Source of the DNA: Spironucleus salmonicida
Lineage: Eukaryota
Length of the DNA: 64,000 nucleotides
Direction: 5' to 3'
Assembly: GCF_000497125.1 (NCBI RefSeq)
Contig: NC_090599.1
Span: 868,001-932,000, forward strand
Every line of letters begins with the position of its first letter. Within the stretch, counting starts at the first letter, position 1. The notes under the pieces were generated by a model that did not search any database, was not told where the DNA came from, and saw only the letters and a program-made list of their open reading frames with translations. The position numbers and the translations under genes were made by a program. Shown piece by piece: positions 13,958 to 59,034 of the stretch.

Positions 13958-14502
13958 AGTTAAATCGTGTTTATATTGTATAATAATAGTAATAGGGTGT
14001 AAGTGGAAGGGAAAAATAATAGTATTTATATTGTATAATAATTATAGTAGTTGTAAGGATGAAAATAATGGAAATAATGGAAATGAGAATTAAAATGAGA
14101 ATTAGTAGAAGCAGAATTGGAATTAAATGAAGGGAAGGAGTAATGGATATTTGAATGAGCGGGAAGTTAACGGAGGGCAAGTTAGCTTGCTTCAGCATGA
14201 CCGTTGGGAATATGTGTTCTAGGCGGCAGGAGTGAGTGTAGGGGGAGGTTGGCAGGCAGAGTTGGCAGATAACGGTAGCAGAAGATGGGAACCATTAGGC
14301 AAGCGTAGTGTATGTGGCTGGTATTTCAATCAGTCTTATTTTAAAAGTTAAAGTCCGTAGTTTTCTGCAGTAGTCCTAAAAATGCTCTATGCAACATCGT
14401 TTGCTCGCCACTGTGCAATAGTTAATACAGCTGAGGTAAGACTCAGTTGCCCATGTCTCCACGGATAGTCTATCGATGCTGCATTTTTTGGAAGGGGCTC
14501 AC

Positions 14503-15165
14503 TCAGACGCCGACCACGCGCAGGTACAGCCGCAGCCATGCAGCCAGGAGCACGAACAGGTTCACGACCCCCAGTGCGCAGGCGACCGCGTTGAGGGCGT
14601 TCCCGGCGAGGGAAGCAGCCGCCAGCGTGCTGAAGTCGAAGCCGTGCACCTGGGCCGCAAGGACGAGGAACACGTTGGCGGCGAGGCGCGAGAGTAGCAT
14701 CTTGCAGTGGGCGAAGAACAGCTGCTGCACCGCGCCGAGCCTGCACAGCCCGAGGAGGAAGGCCGCCCCGGCAGCACCCAGGAACACCGCCCGGATCGTG
14801 GCCGTGGGGCCTGCTGGCAGCGTCAGGACCGCGAGCTGGGCGGCGATGGCAAAGAGCAGCGCCGCGATGGTCGCCACCAGCACGTACACCTGGGCGCCCT
14901 GGGAGCGCAGCGGCAGGTTGTCGCTGAACTGGAACCAGCGCTCCGCGAACACATCCCCAAAGAGCTGCTCGTTCTCCTGCGTGCGGTCCGCCAAGAAGCC
15001 GGGGCGCGCCCGCTTCGGTTTCTGCTTCGATGCGAGAGGCTGTTCCGGGATGCTAGGATGCTCCTCGACGCGGAAGTTCGGGTTGGGAACTGCAGGGGGT
15101 GCGATATCCATCTGGGGTTGTGGTTCTGGGGACACGTTGCTGTCGACGCGGACTGCGAAGTCCAT
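14503..15165 (-). CDS. Four-TM membrane protein with Pro-rich N-terminus, 220 aa (cassette gene A, solo copy)
   Basis: MDFAVRV...; about 4 hydrophobic segments; near-identical to 28095..28757. Confidence 0.75.
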   Translation of the reverse strand: MDFAVRVDSNVSPEPQPQMDIAPPAVPNPNFRVEEHPSIPEQPLASKQKPKRARPGFLADRTQENEQLFGDVFAERWFQFSDNLPLRSQGAQVYVLVATIAALLFAIAAQLAVLTLPAGPTATIRAVFLGAAGAAFLLGLCRLGAVQQLFFAHCKMLLSRLAANVFLVLAAQVHGFDFSTLAAASLAGNALNAVACALGVVNLFVLLAAWLRLYLRVVGV

Positions 15166-15226
15166 TATTTGGAAGGATGTCTTGCTTGTCCCCTTCCAAT
15201 TTAGTGAAAACAAAACAAATTTCGCA

Positions 15227-16158: not shown

Positions 16159-18162
16159 ATGTCTTGCCATATTCAAAATTGCGTAAGTACGATTCCTCCA
16201 TGCTCATGCACGCGGTGCCAGAATGGATTTACTCCTTCCAAAGATTAGGCTATCTGCCTCTAAAACACATTCTGCAAAACCTGCTTCAACGCCAGGCGCG
16301 TTTGCGACCCCAGTGGGGCCTTTAAGTGCAATGAGTGCTCCGGGCAGCCCTCCGAAGACGGGATGCAGTGCCTTGACAACACTGTATGCGCAAGCTGCAC
16401 GAGGCTGGAAAGATGCACCAGCATGAACGGAGAACTCTCGTGCACGCCTTGCAGCTCCGGCCAGATCTCCTCGTTCGACAAGCAGACATGCATATCGGCA
16501 AGCCAGTGCACCACATGTCCCCCGAATACGCACTGCGTGCAGGTGGTGAGCGAGAGCTCGTTTTCCGCGTCGACCACCTGCCGGTACTGCGCAGACAACA
16601 TGCCGAGCTCGGACGACCGGCTGTACTGCTTTAACAAGGCTGCCTGCGAAGTTTGCGCGGCAAGGGGCGAAGTATGCACCCCGGAGGGCGCCTGCTAGGC
16701 ATGCCCGAGCGGCACCGTTCGGAGCGACGACAGCACTGCATGTACCACTGCTCCCCCCTGCGATACGATTTTCGGCTGCCAGCGCTGCGAAAATAACGTC
16801 TGCGCTGCCTGCGCGCCGGGGATGGCCGTCGTCAGCGGCGGATGCGGGCCAGCGACCAGCTGCTCGCACGTCTAGAACTGCCTGATTTGCGACGGGTCCA
16901 GATGCAAGGTGTGCCAGAAGGGCTTCAAAAGCGAGTATGGACGCTGCTACGAGGCCCTCTGCAGCTCCAGCGAGGAGTGCCCCGACATCGTCGTGAACAG
17001 CATATCGTGCAGCCTCCAGGATGGCAAATTCCAGTGCGTGTGCAAGTACGGCGAGCAGCTTTCTGACGACAAGAAGATTTGCCTGAATAGTGACGCATGC
17101 TACGACTGTATCAAAAACAAACAGATCTGTACGATGAATGCAGGCGGGACCGCGTTTGAGTGCCAGGACTGCCCCGAGGGCACGATCTTCCAGACCGATA
17201 GGTGCCTGACGAGCTGTGCTGGATGTGCCGAAGACGAGTTTTGCGGGTATTCCTACTCCGCCAAAAAGTTCGAGTGCCAAAAATGCCCAGACGGGCAGCG
17301 CATAAACCCCTCTAAGACCGGCTGCGCGCAGAGCTCCTGCGTGGAAGACTGCGCAGCTGTACACCCTGACTTCGCGTGCGTGTTCGATGGGAAGTCTTTT
17401 CAGTGCACCTGCCCAGACGGGGGGAAGCTAGACAAGGGGAGTGGAAAATGCGTTGCCGATGGATGCAGAAACTGCAATTAGTTCCAGGACGTGTGCATCC
17501 TGGGCGCGGACGGGTTTTCCTGCTATTGCAGCAATGAGAACTACCGCTATGATGCCCAACAGGGCTGCGTGCCGGACTGCGCGGGCGACTCGGCGAAGTT
17601 CTGCAGCTTTAGGGGCAAATGCAACGACAGAAGCGAGTGCGTCTGCACGGGCCACTTCGCCGGCAAGAACTGCGAGGGCTGCGCAGCAGGGTACGAGCTG
17701 CACACCGGCGTCTGCATGGCGAGCACGTGCTTGGGCGAGGCGCACTGCAACGGCAACGGCTACTGCCAGCTGGGGCTCTGCAACTGCTTGCCGGGCCACG
17801 GGGGCACCAACTGCGAGGTATGCCCCACCGGCGCCCGCTTCGACGGCGCGAGGTGCGTCAGCAACAGCTGCGGGCTGGGCAGGCAGTGCGACGGGCACGG
17901 GCGGTGCCAGGACGACATCTGCCAGTGCGACGCCCTGTACGAGGGCTGGAACTGCGGGAAGTGCCAGGACGGCGTCCTGCGGAACTTCGCGGGCGAGTGC
18001 CTGCCGGACGGGGCCGGCGCCGGCGCGGTGGTGAAGTCTGGCGCGGGGATGGAGATCGCGGGGATCGCGCTGGCGGTGCTCTGCGGGGCCCTGCTGGTGG
18101 TCGTCGTGGTCGTCGCGGTGAAGTGCAGCGCGAGGAAGCGCCAGAGCGGGCCGTGGAAGTGA
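16159..18162 (+). CDS. Cysteine-rich membrane protein (CRMP/VSP-like; CxxC and EGF/tenascin-like repeats), 667 aa, copy 1
   Basis: ORFs 16363.., 16909.. and 17491.. are in one frame joined by TAG/TAA; TM IAGIALAVLCGALLVVVVVVAV; tail KCSARKRQSGPWK. Confidence 0.9.
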
Positions 18163-18251
18163 TGGTAATTTGTGCTGAGGGAGGGGTTTCTTTCTGGGGT
18201 AGTGGAATATAATACGATTGCGAACAACGCTACTAATTGGCGTTTCCAAAA

Positions 18252-19073
18252 ATGGCATTCGTCTCGCTGCTCGACAGCTCGGACTCCGAGGTGTACATCC
18301 AGGAGCTGTCGCGCAACGTGTCCTACCTCGAAGAGCAGGACTGCATCCGGCGCATGCGGCGGCTGCGCCAGCTCGAGGCGCTCCTCCAGCAGGTCGACGC
18401 CGAGCTAGCGGTTTACCTCCCAAGGTTCGAGGAGGACTGGGAGACGTGCTCGATTGTCTTCAACGACATGGTGTCCGACGCCGCCATCCAGTCAGAGACC
18501 GAGAGGCGCGTCCGGGACTGCGAGGAGATCCTCGCGATCCAGCAGATGATCAACGTGCAGCCGGCCTCGCGCGGCAAACCCGTCACCTTCCAGCTAGAGC
18601 GCTCCGTGCAGATTCCGAAGCAGAAGCCCCAGAGCGTGCTCTTCAGCGGCTTCAAGATCAGCCTGCAGGAGGTGGGGCTCGCGCATTCTACCGCGAAAAC
18701 GCAGTCCGCGCGAAGGCAGCAGCAGCTCACCGACAGACTGTACCCGGCCCACACGGAGCGCACGCAGCCCGTCGCCAGGCAGGTCCCGACGCCGCCGCCT
18801 GTTCTCCGGCCACGCGCCCCCGCGGGTATCCTGAGCAACCCGCCGTCCCCGTACAAGGACCTGAAGGCGATCATGGACGCGGGCCCGGTGTCCCCGGGGC
18901 GGCACGCGCAGACGCTGCAGGACATCCGAGTGTAGGCCCACCGCGCTGGGGGCCGGCGGCAGAGCGTCCTGCGGTACCAGGCCCAGCTCGCCCAGACGGT
19001 CGGCGGCGCTGCCCCGAGCCACCCTCCGGCAGAGGCGAGCCCGTACAGCAAGCGGCTCGAGGGGCGGGAGTGA
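18252..19073 (+). CDS. Hypothetical protein, 273 aa (cassette gene D, copy 1)
   Basis: MAFVSLLDSSDSEVYIQELSRN...; reads through TAG18933 to GAGTGA at 19073; coiled-coil-like N-half and Pro-rich C-half. Confidence 0.75.
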
Positions 19074-19148
19074 GCCAGGTTCGCCGCCACTGTGCCCTGG
19101 GCCTCCCGGAGAGGCTAAAGATTGGCACCAGCCGAATTGCAAAACCGC

Positions 19149-19730
19149 TCACTCGGGCAGGCACTCGCGCCCGATCAGCCGCTGGCGCACCAGCCCCTCG
19201 CCGATGGCCTGCAGGCGGTACCGCACCTGGATGTCCGTGCGGCCCTGCACCTTGTCCGCGATCAGCCGCCACCTGCGCGGCGGGGACCCGGCGACCGCCG
19301 CCACGAGCTGGGCGTCCTCCGCGGGGCTCCACTTGCCCTTGCGGATCGCGGGGTTCGCCACGCGGGCCCAGCGCTGGTTGCACTGCGCGGGGGACCGCAC
19401 CGGCGCGCCCGGGACCTGCCGGTGGATCGCCCGCGCGATGTGCGGCCAGGTGCCGCGCTCCGGGCACGCCGCGAGCCGCCGCAGCAGGCTGTCCTCCTCG
19501 GGCGCCCACTCGCTCTGCGCGCGGCGGGTGCGGCGGGGGCTGTCGGACGCCTCGGAGGCCGCGAAGCTGGAGGACACGTCCGCGCGGGCCGAGGGCGTGG
19601 CGCTCAGCGTGCCGGTCTCGAAGTCTGCGGGCGTGAACAGCAGGGGCGCCGAGTACTCCTGGCCGAGGTCGAGGTCGAGGCCGAAGGAGAGGTCCGCGAA
19701 GGAGACCTTGGAGGGATAGTCGAAGTTCAT
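19149..19730 (-). CDS. Two-repeat (R2R3-like) Myb transcription factor, 193 aa, copy 1 of 5
   Basis: WAPEEDSLL...TWPHIA...RSPAQCNQRW...NPAIRKGKWSPAEDAQL...RWRLIADKVQGRTDIQVRYR. Confidence 0.93.
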   Translation of the reverse strand: MNFDYPSKVSFADLSFGLDLDLGQEYSAPLLFTPADFETGTLSATPSARADVSSSFAASEASDSPRRTRRAQSEWAPEEDSLLRRLAACPERGTWPHIARAIHRQVPGAPVRSPAQCNQRWARVANPAIRKGKWSPAEDAQLVAAVAGSPPRRWRLIADKVQGRTDIQVRYRLQAIGEGLVRQRLIGRECLPE

Positions 19731-19786
19731 TGCGGAGTGGGGCGGGCGAAATATCGCTGCGGGCGGCCCGAGTGCGGTTTCTGCTT

Positions 19787-20587
19787 ACCGCTCCCCGTTT
19801 TTTCTGCGGCCCGAGTAGAGCGGTGAGTAGAGGGGAGCGTATAGAATAAGGAGTGGACAAGCAGTTGATATCATAGTAACACTGCTAAAAATAGAAATGC
19901 GGATATTCATAGATGCATGCAGGAATGTATTATTACTAAATATAATATTTAATGCAACGTTAAAAATATCGTAGCATATTACTAGTTGCATTTTCTAATA
20001 AATACCAAGCACCAATATATTTATAACAGAATATAGTCAACATTGCGTATTCCTCAGTTAACTGAACGAACCTAGCGTATATGGTTGGCATGTATCTATT
20101 GGCTGTGCGACTCTGCAAACCAACTAAAGATTGCCAGCTATTTGGTAGGATTCTATCTAGCAGCTATGGATTTTGACGGAAAGCCTGAGCCAGCACCCTC
20201 GCTGGCATGACTCCTCACCCAACTCCCGGCTGCCAGCTCCATAACAGCACGAGCGCTTTGCGGGACCGGGCATACGAACAGGGTGTAACCGGGTGCCAGC
20301 ATAGCAAGCAGCCGCATACTCCGAAGCCACCCAGCGCAATCCCCTAGCCTGGCCAAAGCACGGAAGCACGTAACTATGGGGCCAGCTGCACACCAGCATG
20401 GGCAAATAGAGTTGCCGTTGGTGGAATTTTGCTACCTCCGGCGCGGCCAGAGAAGGTAATTCTTCCCTCCGACTCGCATGCCGGCCAAAGGCACCGCGGC
20501 GGGACCCTCGGCTTGGCGCAGCGGCAAGGGCACTTTGCATGCGGGTCTGCCCACCGCTCCCCGTTTTTTCTGCGGCCCGAGTAGAGC
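19787..20587. repeat. ~730-bp intergenic module flanked by a perfect 35-bp direct repeat (19787..19821 and 20553..20587)
   Basis: ACCGCTCCCCGTTTTTTCTGCGGCCCGAGTAGAGC occurs at both ends; the module recurs at ~30.4-31.3, 36.4-37.2 and 44.9-45.7 kb and partly at 57.7-58.2 kb. Confidence 0.85.
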
Positions 20588-20610
20588 CCGGTCTACGCGG
20601 CCCGCTCCTC

Positions 20611-21489
20611 ATGTTACGGGTTCTCGCGCACACCGTGTTCGCCGCCGCCGCCCTGCCCTCCGAGGCCCTGCTGCTGCTCGCCGCGCCGGACGACCCGATG
20701 CTGGAGCTGCTGGACGGCGTCTGCGCGCAGGTGGACGTGCCCTGCGGCGCGGTGGACTGCGGTCTGGAGGCGGCCTTCTGCGGGGGCATCCCCGGTGCCG
20801 GTGCGTCCCAGTACGTGATTCTGCAGAGCGGCCACTTCCAGCCCGTCCCCCGCGAGAAGGCGGCCGCGAAGTACGCCGCGATGTGGTTCCAGGACATGTT
20901 CTGCACGGACCTCTGCCACGAGCTCCGCGCGCAGCTGCGCCTCCACACGGTCTTCTCGGTCCGCGGCCCCGCCTCGGTGCGCGCCGACTTCCAGGCCCAG
21001 CTCAACCGCTTCAAGCTCGCCGCCGTGTTCGTCTTCGCCGAGGACGCCGCCTTCGCGCTCTCCGCCAACCTGGACGGCCGGGACTTCGCCTACGAGGGGC
21101 CCTGCGACATGGGCCACGTCGCGCGCTTCCTGGCCTCCCGGACCAACTCGGCCCTGCCCCGCGCCGACGGGAGGGGGCTCTCCGCGCTGCTGGCCGGGGG
21201 CGAGGCCACCGTGCTGCTGCTGCCCGACTTCGGTGCGCACGCCGCCGCGCTGGACGCCGTGTACGCCCGGGGATACGAGCGGGTGCTCTACGCGGACTGC
21301 TCGCGCGTGCCCGACTACTGCAACCGCTTCAACGCGCTCCAGGGCGGGGCGGCGGTGCTCATCCGCGGCGCGGCCCAGCAGTACGCGGTGCTGCGCGGCG
21401 AGGTGGGGGCCGTGCTCGCGCAGCTGGCCTCCGGGGAGTTCGCCATGCTGAGCGAGGCGGAGCTGGTGCAGCAGCTGTCCAGCGAGTGA
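20611..21489 (+). CDS. Putative redox-inactive PDI-like / multi-thioredoxin-fold protein, 292 aa (cassette gene C, copy 1)
   Basis: GAVDCGLEAAFC, YEGPCDMGHVARFL and YADCSRVPDYCNRF resemble PDI-domain signatures; no WCxxC. ATG20611 chosen because the upstream ATG lies in the module. Confidence 0.6.
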   Translation: MLRVLAHTVFAAAALPSEALLLLAAPDDPMLELLDGVCAQVDVPCGAVDCGLEAAFCGGIPGAGASQYVILQSGHFQPVPREKAAAKYAAMWFQDMFCTDLCHELRAQLRLHTVFSVRGPASVRADFQAQLNRFKLAAVFVFAEDAAFALSANLDGRDFAYEGPCDMGHVARFLASRTNSALPRADGRGLSALLAGGEATVLLLPDFGAHAAALDAVYARGYERVLYADCSRVPDYCNRFNALQGGAAVLIRGAAQQYAVLRGEVGAVLAQLASGEFAMLSEAELVQQLSSE

Positions 21490-21499
21490 GCCGCCTTCC

Positions 21500-22240
21500 T
21501 CACGCCCCGCGGTCCCAGGCCTGCAGCCGCGCGAGCTCGAGCCCCAGGTCCGCCTCCCCGAGCGTGCTCGTCACCCCCAGCGCGGGCAGCGGCCAGGCGC
21601 CCAGCACCTCCGCCAGCGCCCACACGGAGCGCGCGCCAAGGAGTGCCCGGGGGCGGCGGCCCTTGAACTCGGCCGTGTCCAGGTCGTCCGTCAGCGCGCC
21701 GGGGCAGCCGCAGAGGGTGGCGAGTCGGTCCGCGGCGCACTGGAGGAGGCTGCAGTCGAAGAAGCAGCGCTCCGGGTACTCGCCGTCCTCGCTCGCGCGG
21801 CCCCGCACCAGCAGGTCGAAGTCGGCAGGCCCCAGCGCGGCGGTGGCGACGCGGAGAGCGGCGAACTGGGCGTGCAGGAGGGGCAGCAGCGCCAGGAACT
21901 CGTCGCGCGCGTACGCCTGGAACGCCCGCCGGAGGGGCGCTGGGGCGCGGACGGCAGGCGGGGAGCGCGCGAGCAGCACGGGCGTGGCCATGCAGGCGAG
22001 TGCAGCCGCGGCATGGGCCCGGTACGCCCTGCGGATGCCGGGCAGGTCCACGTGGCGCGGAGGGTGGGGCAGCAGGCAGGCCAGGTAGAGCACCGCGGGG
22101 GCGCTCGCGTGCCCCAGGAGCCCGAACAGCCCGAACAGCGTGGCCGGGTCCTCGACGTCCTGGGACTCCAGCCGGGCGAGGACGCGGCGGGACCGGCTGC
22201 CGCTGACGAAGGGCCGCAGGAAGGCCAGAGCGCTTCGCAT
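21500..22240 (-). CDS. Hypothetical protein, 246 aa (cassette gene B, copy 1)
   Basis: ATG-initiated, strongly G/C-ending codons, tightly packed between neighbours; conserved at 28771..29511. Confidence 0.7.
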   Translation of the reverse strand: MRSALAFLRPFVSGSRSRRVLARLESQDVEDPATLFGLFGLLGHASAPAVLYLACLLPHPPRHVDLPGIRRAYRAHAAAALACMATPVLLARSPPAVRAPAPLRRAFQAYARDEFLALLPLLHAQFAALRVATAALGPADFDLLVRGRASEDGEYPERCFFDCSLLQCAADRLATLCGCPGALTDDLDTAEFKGRRPRALLGARSVWALAEVLGAWPLPALGVTSTLGEADLGLELARLQAWDRGA

Positions 22241-22253
22241 TTTGGAAGGGGCC

Positions 22254-22628
22254 TCAGACGCCGACCACGCGCAGGTTCACGACCCCCAGTGCGCAGGCGA
22301 CCGCGTTGAGGGCGTTCCCGGCGAGGGAAGCAGCCGCCAGCGTGCTGAAGTCGAAGCCGTGCACCTGGGCCGCAAGGACGAGGAACACGTTGGCGGCGAG
22401 GCGCGAGAGTAGCATCTTGCAGTGGGCGAAGAGCAGCTGCTGCACCGCGCCGAGCCTGCACAGCCCGAGGAGGAAGGCCGCCCCGGCAGCACCCAGGAAC
22501 ACCGCCCGGATCGTGGCCGTGGGGCCTGCTGGCAGCGTCAGGACCGCGAGCTGGGCGGCGATGGCAAAGAGCAGCGCCGCGATGGTCGCCACCAGCACGT
22601 ACACCTGGGCGCCCTGGGAGCGCATCAT
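22254..22628 (-). pseudogene. 5'-truncated, internally deleted copy of 4-TM gene A (124-aa open frame)
   Basis: Lacks the N-terminal ~85 codons and a 36-nt in-frame segment (FVLLAAWLRLYL) relative to 28095..28757; ATG ATG occurs at the junction. Confidence 0.7.
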
Positions 22629-22853
22629 CAGGTTGCTTATATCACCAATTCCTTCATTTATTAACCCTTTCTACCCTTGAATTTTTAATTCCCAGCTCAC
22701 ACTCGCCGCTCTACGTTTTCGACACAAATTTTTAAACTTAATATAATTATATAATAATCAATATATCAAATTTTTTAAAATCCCCTTCCTTTTATCCCAC
22801 ATATTTCTTATTATTATACATAATTACCCAAAATATTTTCCCCTCCCACAAAA

Positions 22854-23552
22854 ATGGCGGAATCGAATTTCAACCTGCTGGAAATCGTGCACAAGTTCAA
22901 AACCTACGAGGAGTACCTCGACTCGCACATCAAGCCCGAGGACCTGTTCTTCCTGAATTCGCTCGAAACGGCGCGCAGGATCGTGGAAACTTCGTCGCTG
23001 AAATCCGAAATTCTGAAGAGGGACGAGTTCGAGTCCGCAAAACGTGAAATTAACTCACAGAAACAGCGCGGGCAGTCGTACCAGACCACGAACTTCGCGT
23101 CTGACGGGGCGAACGTGGACGAATTTCCGTTCCTTTTTGCGCTCAAACAGCGCGAGCAGCTCGTAAAGGAAGGGAAACTGGCGGTCATCGTGTTCTTACG
23201 CGACAAGAACCACAGCGGGCAGGAGATTTCGGGCTACATCGACTACGGCCAGAGGCTGAAAAACGAAGATTGCAGAGGATATTTTTTGCGGCAGAAAAAA
23301 CTGCTCCCCAAGAGCACCGATTTGAGCTTTTACAACTGGGACACGCAGTTCGTTAGCAGCATGGCGAGCGAGAATTTCGAGCTAATGGCTGATAATGAGG
23401 CCGGATTTCTGTTCAAATGCAGGCGCGACAGAAAGGTCATAAACGTTAATCCGGGGGCTGTGCTGGACGAGAAGAGCGTTAGGCACGTGATTGACACGCA
23501 CGAGTACGTGCATTGCGTTATTTACGACCACGTGCTGAGAAGAAAAATGTGA
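22854..23552 (+). CDS. CFAP299: Cilia- and flagella-associated protein 299 (DUF4464/C4orf22 family), 232 aa
   Basis: YEEYLDS...DLFFL...ARRIVE; PFLFALKQRE...KLAVIVFLRDKNHSGQEISGYIDY...LLPKSTDLSFYNW; VIYDHVLRRK. Confidence 0.85.
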   Translation: MAESNFNLLEIVHKFKTYEEYLDSHIKPEDLFFLNSLETARRIVETSSLKSEILKRDEFESAKREINSQKQRGQSYQTTNFASDGANVDEFPFLFALKQREQLVKEGKLAVIVFLRDKNHSGQEISGYIDYGQRLKNEDCRGYFLRQKKLLPKSTDLSFYNWDTQFVSSMASENFELMADNEAGFLFKCRRDRKVINVNPGAVLDEKSVRHVIDTHEYVHCVIYDHVLRRKM

Positions 23553-23616
23553 GCATTTTATTTATATATGATTATTATATATTATATATTAATAATAATG
23601 TTTTGCATAAATTAAA

Positions 23617-24045
23617 ATGCTGACTTTCTACTAACTCGACTAAATTCAAGAAACCGCTGCCGCCGGCGACGACACGATAGCTGCGTTAATCAAAACACAC
23701 AAATTCACTATTTCGCAGCTTCCAATTACCGCTGCAAATCCCTTATAGCTTGCTCCTCTAACATTCGAATTTGAGAACCTTTTTGCTTAGCTGGAGGAGT
23801 GCAAAAAAATTGCTCAAAACTAACAGATCGCTGGGTTCATGTCCCGCTGCGCTGCTTTTTTGCCGCAGTCGAACTTCGCAGATTTCGACGATTCGAGCGA
23901 CGGCGGCGTAGAGGTCCAGGAGCTCGCAGAGGCCCCGGGTTCTTGCCGGCACGCGCCGATTTCGCTACCTGAATTTCGGAGCGGAGGCGCAATTCTGCGC
24001 GGCTGTGGCGCGTGCGGGGCGCGCTATTTCTGCGCCGTCCAGTGA
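23617..24045 (+). CDS. Hypothetical protein with C-terminal CxH...CxxC zinc-ribbon-like motif, 142 aa
   Basis: Code-6 extension of ORF 23839..24045 to ATG23617; SCRHAP...RGCGACGARYFC; ends CAGTGA. Confidence 0.65.
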
Positions 24046-24057
24046 GCCGTCGAAGCG

Positions 24058-26189: not shown

Positions 26190-26444
26190 ATGAAGCTGTA
26201 TTGGACGTTCGAGCGCGAAGAGTAGCTTGCACTGGCGGTCTAGTAACATGGCAAAAAGTGGTCATTTATCATGAAAGAGGCATTTCCTGATTCTAGTGTA
26301 TCAATTTTAAAAAATAAATGGACAAAAATGTAATAAGAGGGATCTTTAACGATGTACAATCTTAGTAATGCGCGAGAAATGCCAGAATTAAATGATGATG
26401 ATGTACTAGTTAATGAGATAATATAGGTAATCAGAAATTAGTGA
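26190..26444 (+). CDS. Small single-repeat Myb protein, 84 aa; paralog of 9874..10131
   Basis: MKLYWTFEREEQLALAVQQHGKKWSFIMKEAFPDSSVSILKNKWTKMQQEG...; ends TAGTGA. Confidence 0.85.
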
Positions 26445-28757: not shown

Positions 28758-28770
28758 GGCCCCTTCCAAA

Positions 28771-43902: not shown

Positions 43903-43960
43903 TCGAAGCGACCTAAAATATTATATCGTGCCCCACATTATATTAGGTACTTAGATTACA

Positions 43961-50072: not shown

Positions 50073-50462
50073 ATGGAAAAGCTTCAAAATGATTAGATAA
50101 TTAAAGTTATGTAACAGCATTATTCTTTCTTACAGACAGCATATTTATAGACTAAAAATTTGGCGTAAGAGTCGAATATTTCATCCCAATATATCAACTT
50201 GTTAGTTGACTTTCTTTTAACATCTGCGAACGAGAATTTACTAAATCGCTCTTTCTGCGATTTTCTGAAGGAGTTCACACTACTAACCCAAAATCAAAAT
50301 TAATTCAGTCTACTACCGTAAAATGATCTTAAGCTGAGTGAAATCAACTAGAAAATGAATACGTAAGCAGACAGTTGTATAAAGGAAAACATAAATCTCA
50401 AAAAGACCATATTCCTACTTATTGGTATCATTTTTATGCTCTTATGCCTTCTGATTTTCTGA
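50073..50462 (+). CDS. Putative tail-anchored membrane protein, 129 aa, copy 1
   Basis: MEKLQNDQIIKVMQQHYSFLQ...NLKKTIFLLIGIIFMLLCLLIF*. Confidence 0.6.
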
Positions 50463-51269
50463 GTTTTATATTTTTGTCAGTTAGTTTGGAGTAGGTTTCC
50501 TCATTTTCAAAACTGCTTTATACTTATTTATTTTATCTATACCTCGCTAATTATTGATTTAAAAAGTCAAATGAGCTCTTTCAGTATTAATCAAATAAAC
50601 TACACAAAAACCTTTTAAAATGAGGTAAGATACTTTGTACTAGTTTATTTTAACAGAATTGTAGAGTTTAATGTGCAATAATTCTGTAATTTTCTATTTC
50701 TTAGGTTAATACGTATTATGCTTCTCAAAAAGCATGATAAGTTTTGGTGAAATTATTAAATATCTTATAAGCTTTCAGTTTGGTATCATTAAAAATAAAT
50801 AGGATAAGTAAAATACTAATGTTAACCTATAGTAGAAAGCAGCACTTAACATAAAACTTAGGTTAATAATTATTATTTTCTCCAACAATTTACTATATAG
50901 TTAGTTTAATACTTATATACCGTAACAAATATCAGCTAGATCGACTTAGTACATCTTCAAAGAAGGTTCTTCTAGATTACTAAGATTTAGCACCTATTCA
51001 CATAGGGTGACTTTTTTACAGTTTAATTATACATCTCACTTCACCTCGACTGCTCTTTTTACGAGAAATACATTCATTTAAACAAGGCAAATTATATTTT
51101 TTATATTCAGGCCTTAATTAAGTATGATAATTAATCATAATGGTTGAATATAATAAACAAATTATTTTGTATACTTTTTGAGTAATAAAATAAAATGTAT
51201 AATATTTTTCGTTTTAATGGTCGCATATATATATATACTAAAATTTACATTAATTATTTGTGTTTAAAA

Positions 51270-52448
51270 ATGCTGAAAAATATTGATTCTACATAGCTTA
51301 AGCTTTAAGAGTTATTTAATAATTCTACTATAAACGCACGTAATGGATCATATTCTTCTAAGATTGATTTACCCAGAGCAGAATTTAATAATTAAAATCT
51401 TCTCAGTTTTGCTAAAGCTGATTTTGAAACTCCCACTCCATAACCTATTTAGTCTTTATTGATAGATCATATTTAAAAGTATAGCTCAGGTTATAGTTAT
51501 CATCCGGATTCCCTTTATGCCGCTATAATAAATTGGTAATAAAAATATTTTGGTGTCAATCTCAAAAAGCAAGATATTGCATTTATCCCAGGAGTTATGC
51601 CAGGAATTTGTTTAGCATTAAAAGCTATTATGAACCCAGGAGATAAAGTTACGTTATTCACTCCAGAATATCCAGCTTTTTTTACATTAATGGAAGCAAA
51701 TAGATATATATGGGATAGTGTAAGTATTTAGGACGATACTATTAATTTTGAAGCATTAGACTTATAGCTTAAAAATTCAAAAGTACTTTTATTGTCGAAC
51801 CCACATAATCCTACTGGAAAAGTACTTAGCAGGTCTGAGATATAGAAAATTGTTTAGCTTTGTAATAAGTATGATATTTACTTAATTATCGATGAAATAT
51901 GGTAGGATATAACGTTTGATGTGTAGCATTAATCAATTTTAAAGTATCGTTCAGAGAAAACAGTTTCTTTTTCTTCTGGATCGAAATCATTTAACACTGC
52001 AGGATTTTAGTTAGCATTTGCATTAATTGAAGATTAATCACTCCGGAGAGCATTTTAAGCTGAACAAGATAAGTCATTTCTTAATTCATCTAATATAGCT
52101 GGAATATTAGCATTACAAACTGGTTATGAACAATGTGATTAATATCTATTTGCTTGGAAAAAATATATTGCTGAGAATATGGATTATTGTTCAAAATATC
52201 TTCGAGATAATGTCCCATAGGTTTTGACTTATGTGCCTGATGCAACATGTCTGCTCATGTTAGATTTTAGTTAGGTATTTAAAAATTGTGAAGAGGCTGA
52301 ACAAGCTTTAGCCAAATAGAATATTTATCTATAAAAAGGCTCAGATTTTAAATTTAATGGTGTTTTTATGCGTCTGAATTGTGGTACTAGTCGTTAAGAG
52401 CTTAATTTGTGCATGTAAGCAGTGAAAAGAGCAGTCGAGGTGAAGTGA
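51270..52448 (+). CDS. PLP-dependent class I/II aminotransferase-fold enzyme, MalY/PatB (cystathionine/C-S beta-lyase) type, 392 aa
   Basis: AKADFETP, IPGVMPGI, PGDKVTLFTPEYPAF, LSNPHNPTGKV, IIDEIWQDI, SGSKSFNTAG (PLP Lys), FMRLNCG. Confidence 0.88.
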
Positions 52449-53021
52449 GATGTATAATTAAACTGTAAAAAAGTCACCCTATGTGAATAGGTGCTAAATC
52501 TTAGTAATCTAGAAGAACCTTCTTTGAAGATGTACTAAGTCGATCTAGCTGATATTTGTTACGGTATATAAGTATTAAACTAACTATATAGTAAATTGTT
52601 GGAGAAAATAATAATTATTAACCTAAGTTTTATGTTAAGTGCTGCTTTCTACTATAGGTTAACATTAGTATTTTACTTATCCTATTTATTTTTAATGATA
52701 CCAAACTGAAAGCTTATAAGATATTTAATAATTTCACCAAAACTTATCATGCTTTTTGAGAAGCATAATACGTATTAACCTAAGAAATAGAAAATTACAG
52801 AATTATTGCACATTAAACTCTACAATTCTGTTAAAATAAACTAGTACAAAGTATCTTACCTCATTTTAAAAGGTTTTTGTGTAGTTTATTTGATTAATAC
52901 TGAAAGAGCTCATTTGACTTTTTAAATCAATAATTAGCGAGGTATAGATAAAATAAATAAGTATAAAGCAGTTTTGAAAATGAGGAAACCTACTCCAAAC
53001 TAACTGACAAAAATATAAAAC

Positions 53022-53411
53022 TCAGAAAATCAGAAGGCATAAGAGCATAAAAATGATACCAATAAGTAGGAATATGGTCTTTTTGAGATTTATGTTTTCC
53101 TTTATACAACTGTCTGCTTACGTATTCATTTTCTAGTTGATTTCACTCAGCTTAAGATCATTTTACGGTAGTAGACTGAATTAATTTTGATTTTGGGTTA
53201 GTAGTGTGAACTCCTTCAGAAAATCGCAGAAAGAGCGATTTAGTAAATTCTCGTTCGCAGATGTTAAAAGAAAGTCAACTAACAAGTTGATATATTGGGA
53301 TGAAATATTCGACTCTTACGCCAAATTTTTAGTCTATAAATATGCTGTCTGTAAGAAAGAATAATGCTGTTACATAACTTTAATTATCTAATCATTTTGA
53401 AGCTTTTCCAT
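53022..53411 (-). CDS. Putative tail-anchored membrane protein, copy 2
   Basis: Inverted copy of 50073..50462. Confidence 0.6.
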
Positions 53412-55400
53412 TATCAAATTGGAGTGGTTGTGAGACAAATATACTAAATACAAAACTATAATCCACTGTCACTTTTAACAGATAATGTGTCCACTATGTA
53501 AGTCTGGGCCAAATTCCCAATGAAAGATGTTCTGCCCTGTTTGACTTTAGCTTCTCCAGTTCTTAATGGTTCTATATCTTTTACTAACTGCATATTGGCT
53601 AGCAAATTAGCTATCATTCTGCACTAGCTATCCGTCCTTATCTATGAAATAGTAAACTAGCGCAGCTATAAATACGATGCAGCTCTCACATTTTCATCCC
53701 TGTACCAACTCTATCAAATGAGTGTATACTGGCCTGCTGCAAGTATATTGCCTCAGATCTGCTTTAAATGCTTTTTGTGGTGTATCAGCAAGGTATAACG
53801 CTAGTTCCACAGATACCACAAAGCACTTACGGTTAACTCTGGGAAGGCTATTGCAATTTAAATATGTGCACGAATGCGGCCAGCTTTGTAACTACATTGT
53901 CTAACACAAAACACCGCCATGCAACTAGCAGGTTGCTGCTGGAAAGTAGAGCACCATGCAGATTTGCAGATATTAGTTGCTGACAAATAAATTCTATTGC
54001 ATGGCCAATCCTGCCCGCTAGCCTTTGGGATCTACGTTCGTATTGGCTCATTTTTAGACCTTATTTCCTGCCGTTGTTAGATTAATTCTGGCATTCGGAT
54101 AAATACTTTGAATGACTATTCAACAAGTAGTGTAGCTCAAAGTATCCTACTTGATATTTTAGAGTACTGGTTGGAATATGACTCGAGTATTCATTAGCAC
54201 TATAATAATTGCAAATTATGTGGGACCTTACCTCGGTATTGCCTGTCCCATCTTTGCTAATTTTACTTTCTGCAATCTTTCTGCGGGCTTGCAGCTAGAT
54301 TTACGCATCTCATTCCCTTCTGTTCCCTCGCCCGGCAGGGAAGCGTACGTGCGGTGCCTGAACTACTAAAAAATGCTTTCCCGCGAAAACCTGTAGAACA
54401 AGATGCGCCATGTGAGATAGCAATACCTGGCAAAGCGGTTCAACTGAAACAGCGGTCTGCCTACAGAGGGTATTAGAGCCGATTGCCCATAATTACAACC
54501 GGCCGCACTTAGCTACTGAGAGCTGACGAATTGTTGTACGCTCTGCTCGCGCCTATAGAGCCTACCCAAGTTTTTCCCAGTGCCTCATTGCAGACAAATA
54601 CTAACCATCATCTGCGGCACCCGGCCAGATCTTTACGGAGTTGCTATTACAGCGGAACGGATATTTTGCAAGAGCCTAGAGTTTCGTGAGCTCCTACCCC
54701 GCCGCTGCTCCGGGGCTTTACAGAGTGTGCCAGTATCCCTGTTAGCTAGTTGCTTCCTTTAGACCCAAGCGCGTGGCAAATCTTAACGTCCCTGCCAATT
54801 AGATATCTATGGTCCTCGATACGAGCTGGATATCTCTAGCCTCCTATGTGCGAAGTCCCGCAACATTGTTCACCTAAGGCCCGGTCGGAGAATATTGCTA
54901 CTGCGCCCGCAAGCGTACGGCAGTGTGCTCAATTCGTAGACTGCGCAGTCTCAACCTGGCCTTGCAACATTGTTTGGGTCCGCATGCAGGCTAGGACTTG
55001 ACAGTAAGTTCGTGTTCTCAGGCAAATAATTCCCACATTTCAAGTGTGCACGGCTGGTAAGTACGCGAGGCGGTACTACTCCATGTCCCAACCGTGGAGT
55101 GCATCCATATGGTCTGGAACCCCCGGCTGCGAATGCAACTGTAAAGTATAGAATCTAAAACGCTCAGTCTCTCGCCTGCTGCGGCAATAGCGTTTGCCTG
55201 CGCGCCTCAGTTCCGAATGGTAAGTTGGCGAACCCAATATCGCCACCTCCTAGCAATAAAAGACGCGGCCGTGCTTGTTTGCGCCCAGCTTAGATCCGGT
55301 AATGGTTGTTTACAAAGACTAACCACGTCCTCCACTAACTATACGGCAGCGCTGCTGGTAAGTGGGGACACCGCTACTCTAGCGCCTCGCAGCGCCTGGA

Positions 55401-57671
55401 TCATTTGCCCGCCTTGAGGCGCCTTTGCACGACCAGGCTCACACAGAACGCAAGCAGGCCCACCACGACGGGGGCCAGCACGAAGCCAATCCAAAACACG
55501 CCCGATTCGTTCTCGAAGTTTGCCTCCGCGACGGGGAAAGCGCACCGCTCGGCGGCGCAGTCGAAGTCGGCGTGCCACTGGCGGTTCTTGGCGGAGACGG
55601 CATTGTGCAGCTGGATCTTTCCCCGGTAGCTCAGCGCAGGCCTCGGTGCGCTGGCGAACTAGCAGGTGATGGTCTCGTTGAAGTCCACGAAGGAGGTTTG
55701 GTCGCGGAGGTAGCCCCTGAATATCTGCTGCTCCTGTCTGACCTCGATGATGCGCGGCGTGAAGGAGACGCTCTGCGGGACCCGGTTGGAGATGTACCGC
55801 TTCCCGCCGAACCGGCTCAGCCGCCACACGATGTCGTGCACGAAGGCGTTCGTGTCGATGGCCCGCGTGTGCGTCCTCCCCTGGTTGAACTCCGCCATGA
55901 GCCGCTCGTCCTGCCCCAGGTAGGCCACGACGCCGGTGGTGGTGAAGTACGCGTCGCTGAACACCCGCCGCGCGCAGTCGCCGTCCCACTGGGGGAACTC
56001 CGAGATCACGGGCCGCTCCCGGGGCCCATGGTCGCCCACCACCACCAGCAGGGAGTGGGGGTCGTTTAGGCGCAGGTGGGCCACGAGGTCGCCCAGCTGC
56101 CGGTCCGCGTAGTTCGCGACGCGCTGGTAGTCATTCTCGATGGCGTTGTCGTAGAACTTCGGCTGGTCGTAGCCCGTGAATGGGGTGTGCGTGTCCACCG
56201 TCATCACGACCCCGAAGGCCGGCCGCGCCGCAACCGACATCTGGTCGATGAACTGGCGGGTGGTGATGCGGTCGCACACCCACGAGTTGGGCGGCGGCAG
56301 GTCGGGCAGGTACCCCTTCCGGGGGAAGTAGTACTGCGCCGTGTCGAAGTGGCTGTACAGAATGTTCTGCTTGCCGTCGAACTCCGGGGGCGACGGGGAC
56401 GTGTAGTGGGTGGAGTAGGCCATCCGCCTGAACATGCCCGCCAGCGAGTCGTGCGCGTGGTGCCGCAGCTGCGTCATTGCCGCGCCGTACTGCAGGGGGA
56501 GCTCGCCGGTCATAAGTGCGTACCAGCCGTTGATCGTGGGCAGCGACAGCGTGGAGAGCGTGAGCTCTGTCGTCCCGCTCTGCTGGAGGCCGTGCAGCGT
56601 GGGCATCAGCGTTTCGGAGAAGGTGTTGTTCGCGACCAGCAGGGGGACTGCCGACAGGGACTCGATGATGACCATGTAGACGTTCGGCATCTCTCCTGGC
56701 TGCTCCCTGCCTTGGGGCGCCGGGGCCTCGCACTGGTTGAACTGGCAGTAGCTCGCCTCGTCCCCCACCACGAACGGGAACTGGACGCTGTCGCGGTTGT
56801 CGATGTAGAACAGGCCCGGCGGCAGCTCAACGCTCTGGCGCTCGTCCCGGATCAACGCCTGCAGCCTCGCCTCCGGCAGGTGGTAGCGCGTCAGCGACTT
56901 GAGCATGTTCCAGTGCCCTGGCACCGCCTCGGCCAGCTGCCCGTAGGGGAAGGCGATGAAGGAGGCGAATAGTGCGACCGCGACGAGGGAGAGCAGGGCC
57001 CCAACAGGGCCGGCCGCCCGTCGGACTCTCCGCGTTGCCGAGGATATCTTGGCGGTCTGCATGTCCATCTCGCTCCCGAGCCCGGCGCTGACGGCCTGCA
57101 GCACAAAGTTGTGCGGGGCAGCTGGCCGGACCAGAAACGAGGATACTATGTGCTTCCGTCCGATCAGCACCAGCAGGAGCGCCAGCCCGGCCGAGCCGAT
57201 GACGATCGACGACAGCAGCACCCAGTGGATGATGTCCCTTCCGATGGCCAGCAGAAGCGTGGCGAGCGTGTTGGAGGAGGTCTTCTCGCCCGCGACTAGC
57301 AGCGTGCTGGGGAACAGGGTCGGCACGCCGAGGATGTAGCTCTTGAACAGCGAGAAGCTGGCGATGCCCTGCATCTCGCGCCCCAGCTCGGTGTCGTAGA
57401 TGCAGACCACCATGAAGAGCACCGCGAGGTAGAGCACCACGCACGTCGGGACGGCTCTGGCGACCTTCGCCTTGGCGCCAAGCAACTGGAGCGCGGCGAG
57501 CACGGACGCCAGCAGGCACGCGTCCAGCACGTTCACGAGCACCGCGAGCAGGAAAAGCGCCCGCTGCGAGATCTGCTGGTTCTCGGCTGGCCCTAGCATG
57601 AAGCACTTCAGCCCTGCGATGAGGGAGGTGAAGACGGCATAGAGCACCAGCACAGACAGCGCCGCATGCAT
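55401..57671 (-). CDS. LtaS/OpgB-like membrane phosphotransferase, copy 2
   Basis: Inverted copy of 45813..48083; one amino-acid difference seen (AEAAP versus AEAVP). Confidence 0.82.
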
Positions 57672-59034
57672 ATTATGGAGCGTAGGGTGTAGACCCGGCG
57701 GCGGGCTAGAGCGGAGCGCTGGATGGTTGCCACGCAAACCAGGCAGACCCGCATGCAAAGTGCCCGATGCCAGCTGGCTGGTGATTATCTTGAGGTTTCC
57801 CGTCCAAGTTCCGTTCCCTATGCCGCTGCGCCAAGCCGAGGGTCCCGCCGCGGTGCCTTTGGCCGGCATGCGAGTCGGAGGGAAGAATTACCTTCTCTGG
57901 CCGCGCCGGAGGTAGCAAAATTCCACCAACGGCAACTCTATTTCCCCATGCTGGTGTGCAGCTGGCCCCATAGTTACGTGTTTCCGTGCTTTGGCCAGGC
58001 TAGGGGATTGCGCTGGGTGGCTTCGGAGTATGCGGCTGCTTGCTATGCTGGCACCCGGTTATACCCTGTTCGTATGCCCGGTCCCGCAAAGCGCTCGTGC
58101 GGTTATGGAGCTGGCAGCCGGGAGCTGGGTGAGGAGTCATGCCAGCGAGGGTGCTGGCTCAGGCTTTCCGTCAAAAAATGGCGCACACTTATTTATTGCC
58201 TCTCCTAAAAAATTATCCATATTAACTAATACCACCATGACAACTTCTAAACCTCATAATTTTTATAAAATAATATATTTGATACTAATCACTTAATATT
58301 TTTACTAGGTCCTACAAAATCTTTGTGTAAAGGAAGTACGTGTAGTATTAGAGGAAGCTTCGGATCAGTTCATGTATATTCAGTTCATCAGATGGATTTA
58401 GTTATTTCGATAGAAAATGCCTATTCTCTTTTCTAGCTGTTTTAAAGATATATATTAAATGAAAGTTATTGAATCAAATTGCAAATAAGATTGTAGTCTA
58501 GTTACAATCATCACTGTAATTCATAGAAAGATCAAACATTAGCTAGATAATCCATGTGATTTCTCACGCCAGTATCGTTATGAAAGCTTTTTCTTTTTAC
58601 TCTGCTAAATTACTTATGATGTGTAAGCATAGCAGTTGTAAGTTACCAAAGTGAATGATTTAATGGAGTTTCGACCATCCACGTGTTGCAAAGCACCGAG
58701 GCTGTCCTCGAACTTAATAAAACAGCAATATACCGGCCGTCTGGGCACGCCGACGGCGTAAATTGGCAAATTGAAAACTATTCATAACCGCACCCTGACC
58801 AATGCAGGGCAGCGAGGCGCGTCTATGGTGCGAAAGGACTAGTCTGGCGTAAGCCTGCAGCGTGCTCCCCGGGAGGCTACTGTACGCCCAGGACGCATCG
58901 GCTGCAGCAGTTGCCGAGTGCAAGCACAGTCCAGCGCCCCGTGGTGTCTACTACACATTTCTCCTAGAGCCGCAAATCCTCCCGGTCCGCTCGCGGCGAC
59001 ATCCCGCACCGTGTGCAATAAGTAACCAAACCGC

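Follow-up and report, generated by a model that had tools for sequence, protein, structure and literature searches.

How does a chromosome come to carry a chain of palindromes that share their modules with one another and enclose ordinary single-copy genes between their arms? The question is raised by a 64,000-nucleotide (nt) stretch of contig NC_090599.1 (forward strand, positions 868,001 to 932,000), hereafter called the window and numbered from its first letter, in which GC-rich modules (64–73% GC) sit inverted around single-copy genes in DNA of 25–31% GC. The structure is a real one, a multigene-family island of a hexamitid diplomonad chromosome, and its modules underwent inverted duplication four times or more. 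Four successive inverted duplications, together with their spacers, ages and gene content, can be read in one 44-kb stretch. As for their origin we favour, with a probability of about 0.55, a reading in which homology-seeded replicative repair built the palindromes and gene conversion keeps their arms alike in patches.

Inverted pairs and independent duplications

The repeats were recovered by an inverted-repeat scan combined with self-BLAST, and their divergence was estimated from pairwise alignments. A preliminary description of the locus had named five inverted pairs, A to E. All of them were found, within a few bases of the limits given there, as palindromic segmental duplications with arms of 0.7–6.4 kb, spacers of 953–5704 nt and 0.11–1.32% substitutions between the arms:

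Pair A: 16347–22635 and 28340–34720; 6284 nt aligned; 83 substitutions (1.32%) and 7 indel events; spacer 5704 nt
Pair B: 29469–32217 and 35454–38202; 2748 nt aligned; 15 substitutions (0.55%); spacer 3236 nt
Pair C: 35754–36459 and 40456–41161; 706 nt aligned; 6 substitutions (0.85%); spacer 3996 nt
Pair D: 40456–42246 and 43200–44990; 1791 nt aligned; 2 substitutions (0.11%); spacer 953 nt
Pair E: 45308–51062 and 52422–58176; 5755 nt aligned; 16 substitutions (0.28%); spacer 1359 nt

Kilobase repeats at 98.7–99.9% identity are far beyond chance. The pairs do not, however, stand for five separate duplication steps: the independent inverted duplications are four (A, B, D and E), while pair C is a by-product, because it only relates the Myb gene of the second B arm (B2) to the Myb gene copied by D and so follows from B plus D. 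Besides these four there were further events, namely one direct transfer of the core described below and a single-gene copy of the gene G1 at 14486. The latter represents a sixth relation, absent from the preliminary description, in which 14486–15170 is inverted to 28090–28771 (4 substitutions in 682 positions) and direct to the end of the left arm of A (A-L; left and right arms are marked in this way throughout). Divergence drops roughly from left to right, from A (1.32%) through C (0.85%), B (0.55%) and E (0.28%) to D (0.11%). To this extent the idea of a duplication process walking along the chromosome is borne out, but the spread was not one-directional, since the G1 copy lies to the left of A.

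The Myb open reading frame (ORF) occurs five times, each copy being open over 193 codons, and its order −, +, −, +, − was reproduced exactly (19149–19730 on the minus strand, 31334–31915 on the plus, 35756–36337 on the minus, 40578–41159 on the plus and 44287–44868 on the minus). Strict alternation of orientation in five copies has, by chance alone, a probability of 2/32.

Modules S1 to S8 were defined on the A arm by the break points of all self-matches, with the following limits in A-L and copy numbers in the window:

S1: 16347–18846, gene of CRMP type (cysteine-rich membrane protein), 2 copies
S2: to 19146, 3 copies
S3: to 19852, Myb gene, 5 copies
S4: to 20170, AT-rich, 4 copies
S5: to 20530, 5 copies
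S6: to 21542, gene G3, 3 copies
S7: to 22271, gene G2, 2 copies
S8: to 22635, gene G1, 3 copies

The order of features along the chain, with the genes that its arms and loops carry, is the following:

14486–15170, minus: single-gene copy of G1, ORF 14503–15165 (220 aa); homology begins 5 nt ahead of the ATG and ends 17 nt past the stop
16347–22635: arm A-L, modules S1–S8, with a CRMP-type gene (plus, its frame continuing upstream of 16347), Myb 19149–19730 (minus), G3 (plus), and at the inner end G2 21500–22240 (minus) and a 5'-truncated G1 22254–22628 (minus)
22636–28339: loop A, with the CFAP299/DUF4464 gene 22854–23552 (plus; Pfam E = 5e-74) followed by about 4 kb of 22–27% GC; its part 28090–28339 is the 5' part of G1, kept only by A-R and the 14486 copy
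28340–34720: arm A-R, inverted S1–S8, with a complete G1 28095–28757 (plus), G2 28771–29511 (plus), G3 29522–30688 (minus), Myb 31334–31915 (plus) and a 5'-truncated CRMP-type gene 32902–34704 (minus)
35454–38202: B2, third copy of S2–S6, direct to A-L and inverted to A-R (0.55%), with Myb 35756–36337 (minus) and G3 37004–38149 (plus)
39011–40447, plus: single-copy TIP49/RuvB-like 2 gene between B2 and D-L, its stop 8 nt before the Myb module of D-L
40456–42246: arm D-L, with Myb 40578–41159 (plus), tRNA-Val(GAC) 41412–41485 (minus) and a 241-aa coiled-coil ORF 41508–42233 (plus)
42247–43199, minus: loop D, with a 301-aa coiled-coil ORF 42250–43155, single-copy by contig depth and covered by RNA-like contigs (see below)
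43200–44990: arm D-R, with the coiled-coil ORF 43213–43938 (minus), tRNA-Val 43961–44034 (plus) and Myb 44287–44868 (minus)
44991–45307: S4 piece, 317 nt, 34% GC, four copies in the window, bounded on its two sides by the outer ends of D and E
45308–51062: arm E-L, with S5 and S5b 45308–45742 and a gene for a transmembrane and sulfatase-domain protein 45513/45813–48083 (plus); from 48349 on, AT-richer DNA including a 129-aa ORF 50073–50462 (plus), expressed according to RNA-like contigs
51063–52421, plus: loop E, with a gene for a PatB/MalY-type C-S lyase of the aminotransferase fold, 51270–52448, whose last 8 codons and stop lie in E-R
52422–58176: arm E-R, inverted copy of E-L, with the sulfatase-domain gene 55401–57971 (minus)
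59035–62271, minus: large CRMP-type gene to the right of the chain, GC content at third codon positions (GC3) 0.84, unique within the window

Since the last of these genes adjoins the chain on the right, the chain sits in a surface-protein gene island. Modules S2–S6 appear in the order direct, inverted, direct (A-L, A-R, B2). The D arms consist of S3 plus a 1085-nt piece that carries the tRNA gene and the coiled-coil ORF, and the E arms of S5 and S5b plus 5.3 kb, while the stretch 44285–45742 comprises S3–S4–S5 with the 74-nt S5b and is direct to B2 at 99.2% identity. Although the chain had been described as hinged on the Myb gene, nothing shows that Myb itself is the hinge: it belongs to a 1.4-kb core (Myb, S4 and S5), and D and E, the youngest of the palindromes, end at the two edges of the adjoining S4. 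The loops had also been said to hold unique AT-rich housekeeping genes. Single-copy genes are indeed found in them, but loop B holds part of A-R and no housekeeping gene, and the CFAP299 gene of loop A, 219 nt from the inner end of A-L, has a GC3 of 0.73 and uses only CAG for glutamine, the GC3 of other unique genes being 0.20–0.25.

Read support for pairs D and E

Nearly identical arms are the ones that an assembly might misplace, and for pairs A, B and C this can be set aside, because their arms differ by 0.55–1.3%. For D and E the region 42100–52600, which holds only short pieces of the second arms, was compared with short-read k-mer contigs of four runs, namely DNA runs X1 and X2 from one sample and runs X5 and X6 from another study. 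The latter two behave like poly-A RNA but are not recorded as such; their RNA status is a guess, and the parts that they leave uncovered were not counted as evidence. The sample of X1 and X2 may be the source of the assembly, so that these runs test the assembly method and do not represent another isolate.

Both inner junctions of both palindromes are bridged. In X1 as well as X2 a 1021-nt contig covers 42213–43233, that is the whole loop D with 34 nt of each arm, and a contig of 1424/1425 nt covers 51030–52454, the whole loop E with 33 nt of each arm. Either orientation of a loop yields identical junction sequences in such contigs. Several loose ends of contigs correspond to alternative flanks of repeated DNA: that at 45308 is the reverse complement of the 58177 flank (right outer junction of E), that at 44990 is the TIP49 flank of D-L, and that at 44285 resembles the flank formed by S2 in the copies of A and B. 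Word depth in the loop and in the arm was 15.9 and 32 (X1) or 170.9 and 461.9 (X2) for D, and 10.4 and 22 (X1) or 169.9 and 414.6 (X2) for E. The word depth of a contig is no measure of copy number; as a rough sign, the arms of D and E are double relative to single-copy loops, i.e. the spacers are of normal copy number, with loop contigs at about half the depth of arm contigs in the two DNA runs. Alleles of both E arms are present among the runs. A loose end at 48348, together with a depth in X1 of about 40–44 over 45.9–48.3 kb, suggests further copies of this part of the sulfatase-domain gene elsewhere in the genome.

Arms complete at one end and patchy divergence

The ends of the A and E arms turned out to be asymmetric. 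The outer boundary of A at 16347 lies inside a CRMP frame: A-L runs on upstream with at least 62 more CXXC-type codons, while A-R beyond the arm boundary has unrelated AT-rich sequence instead of the CRMP continuation. At the inner end of A the situation is reversed, since A-R has the whole 220-aa G1 and the copy in A-L is devoid of about the first 82 codons. In pair E it is the left arm that keeps, at the outer end, the S4|S5 joint found in three other copies. At the inner end the junction between the C-S lyase gene and E-R is natural, because the last 8 codons of the gene, located in E-R, line up with the C-terminal helix in 9 equally long bacterial homologues (hydrophobic-K-x-A-hydrophobic). 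The arms of A and E are each complete at only one end, and copy-paste of one arm is therefore excluded. Three routes can lead to this state: (i) duplication of the fold-back type, after which a crossover between the arms flipped the loop once; (ii) one replicative event in which the template is switched twice and the spacer becomes inverted during copying of the arm; (iii) growth of a palindrome out of an inverted pair that was older and shorter, with copying continued beyond the limit of the former homology. The chimeric state of these arms is compatible with past loop flips, and other explanations exist. B and D look like plain, unflipped copies, since the surroundings of the A-R part of B are the natural ones and the S3|S4 joint is preserved in D-R.

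Divergence within the arms is patchy. The E arms differ by 1.15% in S5 and S5b and by 0.21% elsewhere (5 of the 16 differences fall into 435 of the 5755 nt; binomial P = 0.005), and the differences in E are clustered (P = 0.0013). The A arms differ by 1.1–2.2% in S1–S5 and by 0.27–0.40% in S6–S7. Such patches of different age within the E and A arms lend support to route (iii), and they also mean that divergence is no clean clock. In S5, E-L shares one variant with B2 and E-R shares one with A-R. Moreover, variants are shared among the five Myb and S5 copies in combinations that fit no tree; codon 118, for instance, is Asn in A-L and D-R and Ser in A-R, B2 and D-L. Exchange among copies is the simplest reading of these tree-incompatible combinations. 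Together with the clustered differences in E and the two levels of divergence in A and E they make up the picture of concerted evolution, though stepwise growth of the arms could yield the clustering and the two levels too.

Junctions

All boundaries of the units are abrupt. Terminal inverted repeats were found in none of the 11 units (best 16 matches of 40 against a null maximum of 21), and in 10 of the 11 there is no flanking duplication longer than 3 nt. The remaining unit, D-L, has AGTTTC (6 nt) on both sides, with one-base offsets; a match of this kind is expected at 0.8% per unit and at about 8% for the series. Gene content was examined with 122 ORF queries to Pfam (14 + 55 + 26 + 27), translated by table 11 or table 6, and none of these matched a transposase, integrase, recombinase or reverse transcriptase, although divergent enzymes below the reach of Pfam are possible. 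In this respect the preliminary description, which saw no recombinase or transposase in the window and argued against both a tandem array and transposition, was right: the only tandem repeat is one 48-nt array that is irrelevant to the chain.

Several boundaries lie near the ends of genes, namely 2 nt past the Myb stop, 8 nt past the TIP49 stop, 3 nt away from the loop-D gene's stop, 5 nt ahead of the ATG and 17 nt past the stop in the G1 copy, and 13 nt past the stop of the coiled-coil ORF, at which point an RNA-like contig with a loose end of poly-T has its start, precisely at 43200. Of 12 boundaries about 9 are intergenic, and a number of them fall 2–17 nt past a stop, but on the donor side alone the count is 6–7 of 10, without clear enrichment. 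No mechanism was read from this tendency, because a compact genome and selection against broken genes explain it.

Host, genetic code and base composition

Across the whole window TAA and TAG stand for glutamine and TGA is the sole stop. TIP49 is an example. Its two Pfam fragments lie in the same frame 198 nt apart, where the profile expects 66 residues, and under table 6 the frame becomes one 478-aa RuvB-like 2 protein with 20 in-frame TAA/TAG codons (glutamine is encoded by 16 TAA, 4 TAG, 3 CAA and 0 CAG), the best named relative being TIP49 of Hexamita inflata (66% identity). A bacterial reading was tried and rejected: table 11 gives no ORF of at least 150 aa in the AT-rich parts and table 4 is of no help, while table 6 opens them into Pfam-confirmed genes. 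The window is a hexamitid diplomonad chromosome, eukaryotic and Spironucleus-like. AT-rich genes use mostly TAA for glutamine, while GC-rich genes use almost only CAG with an occasional TAG, which is why the latter are readable by the standard code. In-frame TAG is nevertheless found in the GC-rich CRMP and sulfatase-domain genes and in the D copies of Myb; the right-hand CRMP-type gene has 5 TAG and 1 TAA. The D copies of Myb are open only if TAG at codon 5 (40590–40592 and 44854–44856) is glutamine, and look broken under the standard code. A foreign origin of the GC-rich modules was also considered and is ruled out by TAG read in frame as glutamine and by their diplomonad-typical families.

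Base composition has two phases. Unique DNA has 25–33% GC, arms A-L, A-R and B2 have 66–67% (A-L alone 66.5%), the Myb module reaches 73%, and the outer 3 kb of the E arm has 64%. Arranged by the time spent in the repeated state, the modules of old pairs have 64–73% GC, the parts of the arms recruited by D and by E 44% and 39%, respectively, and the loops 25–30%. This pattern fits GC-biased gene conversion.

Origin of the palindromes

In the reading that we favour, a DNA end broken or stalled inside a module would invade a nearby paralogous module of opposite orientation, with the Myb–S4–S5 core supplying the seeds for invasion. The invading end would then copy outward beyond the old homology into unique DNA and be rejoined. 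Each event of this kind would enlarge or create a palindrome with a kilobase spacer, and single-copy genes would be left behind in the spacers. Conversion between arms and between copies would keep the arms 98.7–99.9% alike, patch by patch, and may also have driven long-resident modules to high GC. Direct repeats close to each other would disappear through deletions, leaving mostly inverted ones. Inferred parts of this picture are which repair pathway acted and in what order the events took place, as well as the GC drive and the survivorship bias.

Several observations weigh against it. Pair D has no older seed, as its Myb part, with 1 difference in 706 positions, does not stand out from the remainder of the arm. 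The higher divergence of S5 in pair E may just as well be due to conversion at a later time by the three remaining S5 copies, and one-end completeness is also obtained from fold-back with one loop inversion or from a replicative event with two switches. Any seed or microhomology merges with the arms, and each boundary is by construction followed by a mismatch. As for the GC drive, GC3 of the CRMP-type gene crosses the arm boundary as a gradient without a step (0.58, then 0.72–0.99), the polarisable differences between A-R and B2 (few sites) argue weakly for it with about 4 AT-to-GC against 2–3 GC-to-AT changes, and codon selection may contribute, since the single-copy CFAP299 gene has the high GC3 given above. 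Finally, the read support concerns D and E only, with DNA runs of one sample, perhaps the assembled one.

An unlikely but serious alternative is fold-back duplication at a resected double-strand break, where the 3' end primes on its own strand kilobases away and a later crossover flips the loops of A and E. The preliminary description had proposed iterative template-switch or fold-back duplication; the arms of A and E complete at one end fit a template switch, homology-seeded copying or a loop flip, but no junction signature of fold-back is readable. One later loop flip would give exactly these arms, B and D look unflipped, word depth in the loop contigs of D and E is about half of that in the arm contigs, and the spacers of 0.95–5.7 kb lie inside the range of 0.77–70 kb (median 3.4 kb) that an excerpt of the report on human fold-back duplications gives (PMC3907307). 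The cases described in the same excerpt lead, however, to a dicentric chromosome with a terminal deletion, while here each palindrome is interstitial and flanked by intact genes on either side, and the two-level divergence inside the A and E arms would need extra conversion events.

Homology-seeded copying may also be extended into a self-extending palindrome system, a version that we regard as doubtful. Inverted pairs of Myb–S4–S5 would seed the copying, the island would walk along the chromosome, GC would be ratcheted from about 30% to about 70% by biased conversion, and one flip or more would have taken place in loops A and E. If this were true, the window would be a time series leading from unique DNA of 25–33% GC through new arm DNA of 39–44% to old modules of 64–73%, and it would offer a concrete mechanism for building and diversifying islands of surface-protein and regulator genes in diplomonads.

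Chances are smaller still that the chain is a passive outcome without a specific generator, in which the members were scattered by unrelated ectopic recombination or insertion, close direct repeats were deleted and inverted ones were kept and homogenised. Alternation of five copies arises by chance with a probability of 2/32, and the remaining direct copies (A-L/B2 and B2/D-R) are separated by TIP49 or CFAP299. A parallel is provided by Giardia lamblia, where 14 of 14 identical vsp pairs are inverted and, according to the report, identical genes have no other arrangement (PMC2996952). What a passive process leaves unexplained is the nucleotide-exact sharing of modules by successive pairs, for instance the outer ends of D and E at the S4 edges, and the one-end completeness of the A and E arms.

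Movement of the Myb–S4–S5 core or of whole units as a mobile element (DNA transposon, Helitron-like or retro-copy) is very improbable. One could refer to the 6-nt duplication around D-L, to the G1 copy 14486–15170, which corresponds very closely to one transcription unit (−5 to +17 nt around the ORF), and to reverse-transcriptase genes elsewhere in the S. salmonicida genome (PMC9509377). However, terminal inverted repeats are missing from all 11 units and longer flanking duplications from 10 of them, the single 6-nt match has a probability of about 8% by chance, no transposase, reverse transcriptase or integrase domain came from the 122 queries, and the units vary in extent, carry several genes on both strands and have no poly-A tails.

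Least probable of all are chimeric long reads or mis-joined repeats, for which one could cite the near identity of the D and E arms (0.11% and 0.28%) and the length of the 5.75-kb E arm relative to typical older long reads, since k-mer contigs of two DNA runs bridge the inner D and E junctions by 33–34 nt per side with loose ends matching the alternative outer flanks, arm contigs have about twice the depth of loops, both E-arm alleles occur among the runs, and the A, B and C arms differ by 0.55–1.3% with indels.

Homology-seeded repair with subsequent conversion remains, therefore, the reading that we prefer, and the locus is a good test site for it, with arms complete at one end, older seeds in younger arms and GC rising with time in the repeated state. 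The ideas that it addresses are the origin of palindromes from short inverted seeds, the flipping of loops, and conversion as the cause of a GC-rich genome compartment.

Neighbouring genes and further observations

To the left of the chain four single-copy genes were identified under table 6:

1265–2122, minus: Mob1-like gene
2129–2827, plus: papain-type protease
5815–6735, minus: DHHC palmitoyltransferase
7086–8495, minus: seryl-tRNA synthetase

Between these genes and the chain, at 12680–13270, there is an AT-rich 196-aa ORF with a weak match to Myb_DNA-bind_8 (E = 0.0095, fragment 12851–13267), unrelated in sequence to the repeated Myb. The genes of the repeated modules encode the lineage-specific 193-aa Myb protein, the CRMP-type protein (many CXXC motifs and a membrane anchor at the C-terminus), the sulfatase-domain protein (several N-terminal membrane spans, the sulfatase domain and a C-terminal anchor) and G1, G2 and G3, which have no family match and a GC3 of 0.86–0.97; the D arms add tRNA-Val(GAC) and the 241-aa coiled-coil protein. 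NCBIfam gave no match for the sulfatase-domain protein, CRMP, Myb, G1, G2 or G3, and PDB no sequence match for the sulfatase-domain protein. The cluster of the Myb protein at 90% identity has 7 members. A 196-aa variant of it (93% identity) is encoded at two further loci of the same chromosome with protein accession numbers nine apart, and these may be another inverted pair.

The G1 copy at 14486–15170 coincides very closely with one transcription unit, differs from the A-R copy by 0.59% and has no poly-A tail; it looks like a retro-copy or a gene-limited conversion tract. Near the outer end of B2 (about 37930–38175; 21273–21513 in A-L) 5 of 6 differences from A-R are changes to C (from A, G, G, A and T), which may be due to consensus errors or to conversion of a tract by an unseen paralogue. 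In RNA-like contigs covering 45911–45968 and 47022–48190 a variant of the sulfatase-domain gene was seen, with 19 other letters replacing 56 nt and about 12 substitutions that both E arms lack; hence a further paralogue, at another place in the genome, is expressed.

Each unit has two copies of a 42-nt element (95% identity), one upstream of Myb and the other at the S5b/S6 border upstream of G3 (19780–19821, 20546–20587, 30424–30465, 36387–36428, 37206–37247, 40487–40528 and 44918–44959); the element may be a regulatory motif that is shared. Contigs of the DNA runs branch where it ends (loose end 44959). The stretch 44925–45539, spanning S4–S5, has no convincing ORF and the deepest cover by RNA-like contigs in the region examined, about 150–250 as compared with about 30 for the sulfatase-domain gene. 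It gave no RNA family match at E up to 1 and folds no better than shuffled sequences (z = +1.53 and +0.85), so that there is no recognisable structured RNA in it. In the whole window the two tRNA-Val genes were alone above the threshold for RNA families. The anticodon GAC of tRNA-Val is unusual in a eukaryotic nuclear genome. DNA contigs branch just upstream of this gene (loose end 43959), which means that it is also present in other genomic contexts.

Among the 120 matches listed for the C-S lyase of loop E (51270–52448) the close relatives are all bacterial (Bacteroidota-type PatB/MalY, 29–32% identity), with no diplomonad homologue, and the gene is a candidate for an old lateral transfer judging from these similarities. 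In loop A the approximately 4 kb between 24000 and 28000 (22–27% GC) gave no family match in any ORF tried, in agreement with gene-poor DNA beside CRMP islands being a general feature of the S. salmonicida genome (PMC9509377).

Comparison with known systems

Diplomonad parasites such as Giardia and Spironucleus change their repertoires of surface proteins by duplication and conversion that are poorly understood. To our knowledge, neither classical sex nor meiosis has been observed in diplomonads. Excerpts of two reports provide the closest parallels from Giardia: G. lamblia has 14 identical vsp pairs, head-to-head or tail-to-tail, with 2190–3847 bp between the ORFs and abrupt divergence of the flanks (PMC2996952), and G. 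muris has 7 inverted VSP pairs with genes in between (PMC7641422). As far as these excerpts go, the likeness is considerable: in a diplomonad, near-identical inverted genes are separated by kilobases, sometimes by genes, with flanks that are alike up to an abrupt divergence. The present locus has all these features. It is unlike the Giardia pairs in that its arms carry several genes (up to 6.4 kb), mostly Myb, tRNA, sulfatase-domain and coiled-coil ORFs. Surface proteins are not what is mostly paired here, since a CRMP-type gene takes part in pair A only, while B, C and D pair Myb and E pairs the sulfatase-domain gene. The chain also interlocks via a shared 1.4-kb core, and the host is a Spironucleus-like hexamitid with a different genetic code.

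For S. salmonicida, duplications with a length of at least 2 kb and an identity of at least 95%, mostly of multigene families, were reported to make up 19.2% of the assembly; their mean GC is 44.7% against 30.7% for the rest, and gene conversion was suggested (PMC9509377). The locus fits each of these statements, including that on the gene-poor and GC-rich surroundings of CRMP genes. The text of that paper makes no mention of orientation, palindromes, single-copy spacers or this locus, though its figures or supplements may already show it. We found no published description of palindrome chains in Spironucleus, which is no proof that none exists.

The human Y chromosome has palindromes nested inside palindromes. 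Mammalian sex-chromosome palindromes, according to excerpts of the reports, have arms kept at more than 99% identity by conversion, which is GC-biased, and rare inversions (PMC8981503, PMC3723533). Inverted arms, a unique spacer and high arm identity are common to both systems in so far as these excerpts describe them. The present palindromes differ in size (kilobases as opposed to tens of kilobases to megabases) and have no context of a sex chromosome or testis genes; their GC contrast is far larger (about 65–70% against about 30%), and GC-biased conversion is something that we only infer here.

In yeast, origin-dependent inverted-repeat amplification (ODIRA) produces an inverted triplication (direct, inverted, direct) with short hairpin loops at short inverted repeats. 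The S2–S6 copies of A-L, A-R and B2 have the same order. Unlike the equal copies at short inverted repeats expected from ODIRA, they are unequal in extent (6.3, 6.4 and 2.7 kb) and age (1.3% versus 0.55%), and their loops measure 3.2–5.7 kb. Human fold-back duplications, in the excerpt of their report, have normal-copy spacers and 2–8 bp of inverted microhomology and adjoin terminal deletions (PMC3907307). An inverted copy with a normal-copy spacer is what the locus has in common with them; it differs from that excerpt's terminal deletions, translocations, rings and dicentric intermediate in being interstitial, with no such rearrangement adjacent and intact single-copy genes flanking all palindromes. 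From transposable elements the units are set apart by the absence of defined ends and target-site duplications and, within the Pfam queries, of an encoded transposase, integrase or reverse transcriptase.

Thus, the locus is an elaborate case of a style of duplication known in its relatives and represents no new class of element. It is ordinary in kind and instructive in detail, and what it adds to the known systems is multi-gene arms that are not mainly made of antigen genes, a chain interlocked through a 1.4-kb core, and internal evidence on how palindrome arms grow.

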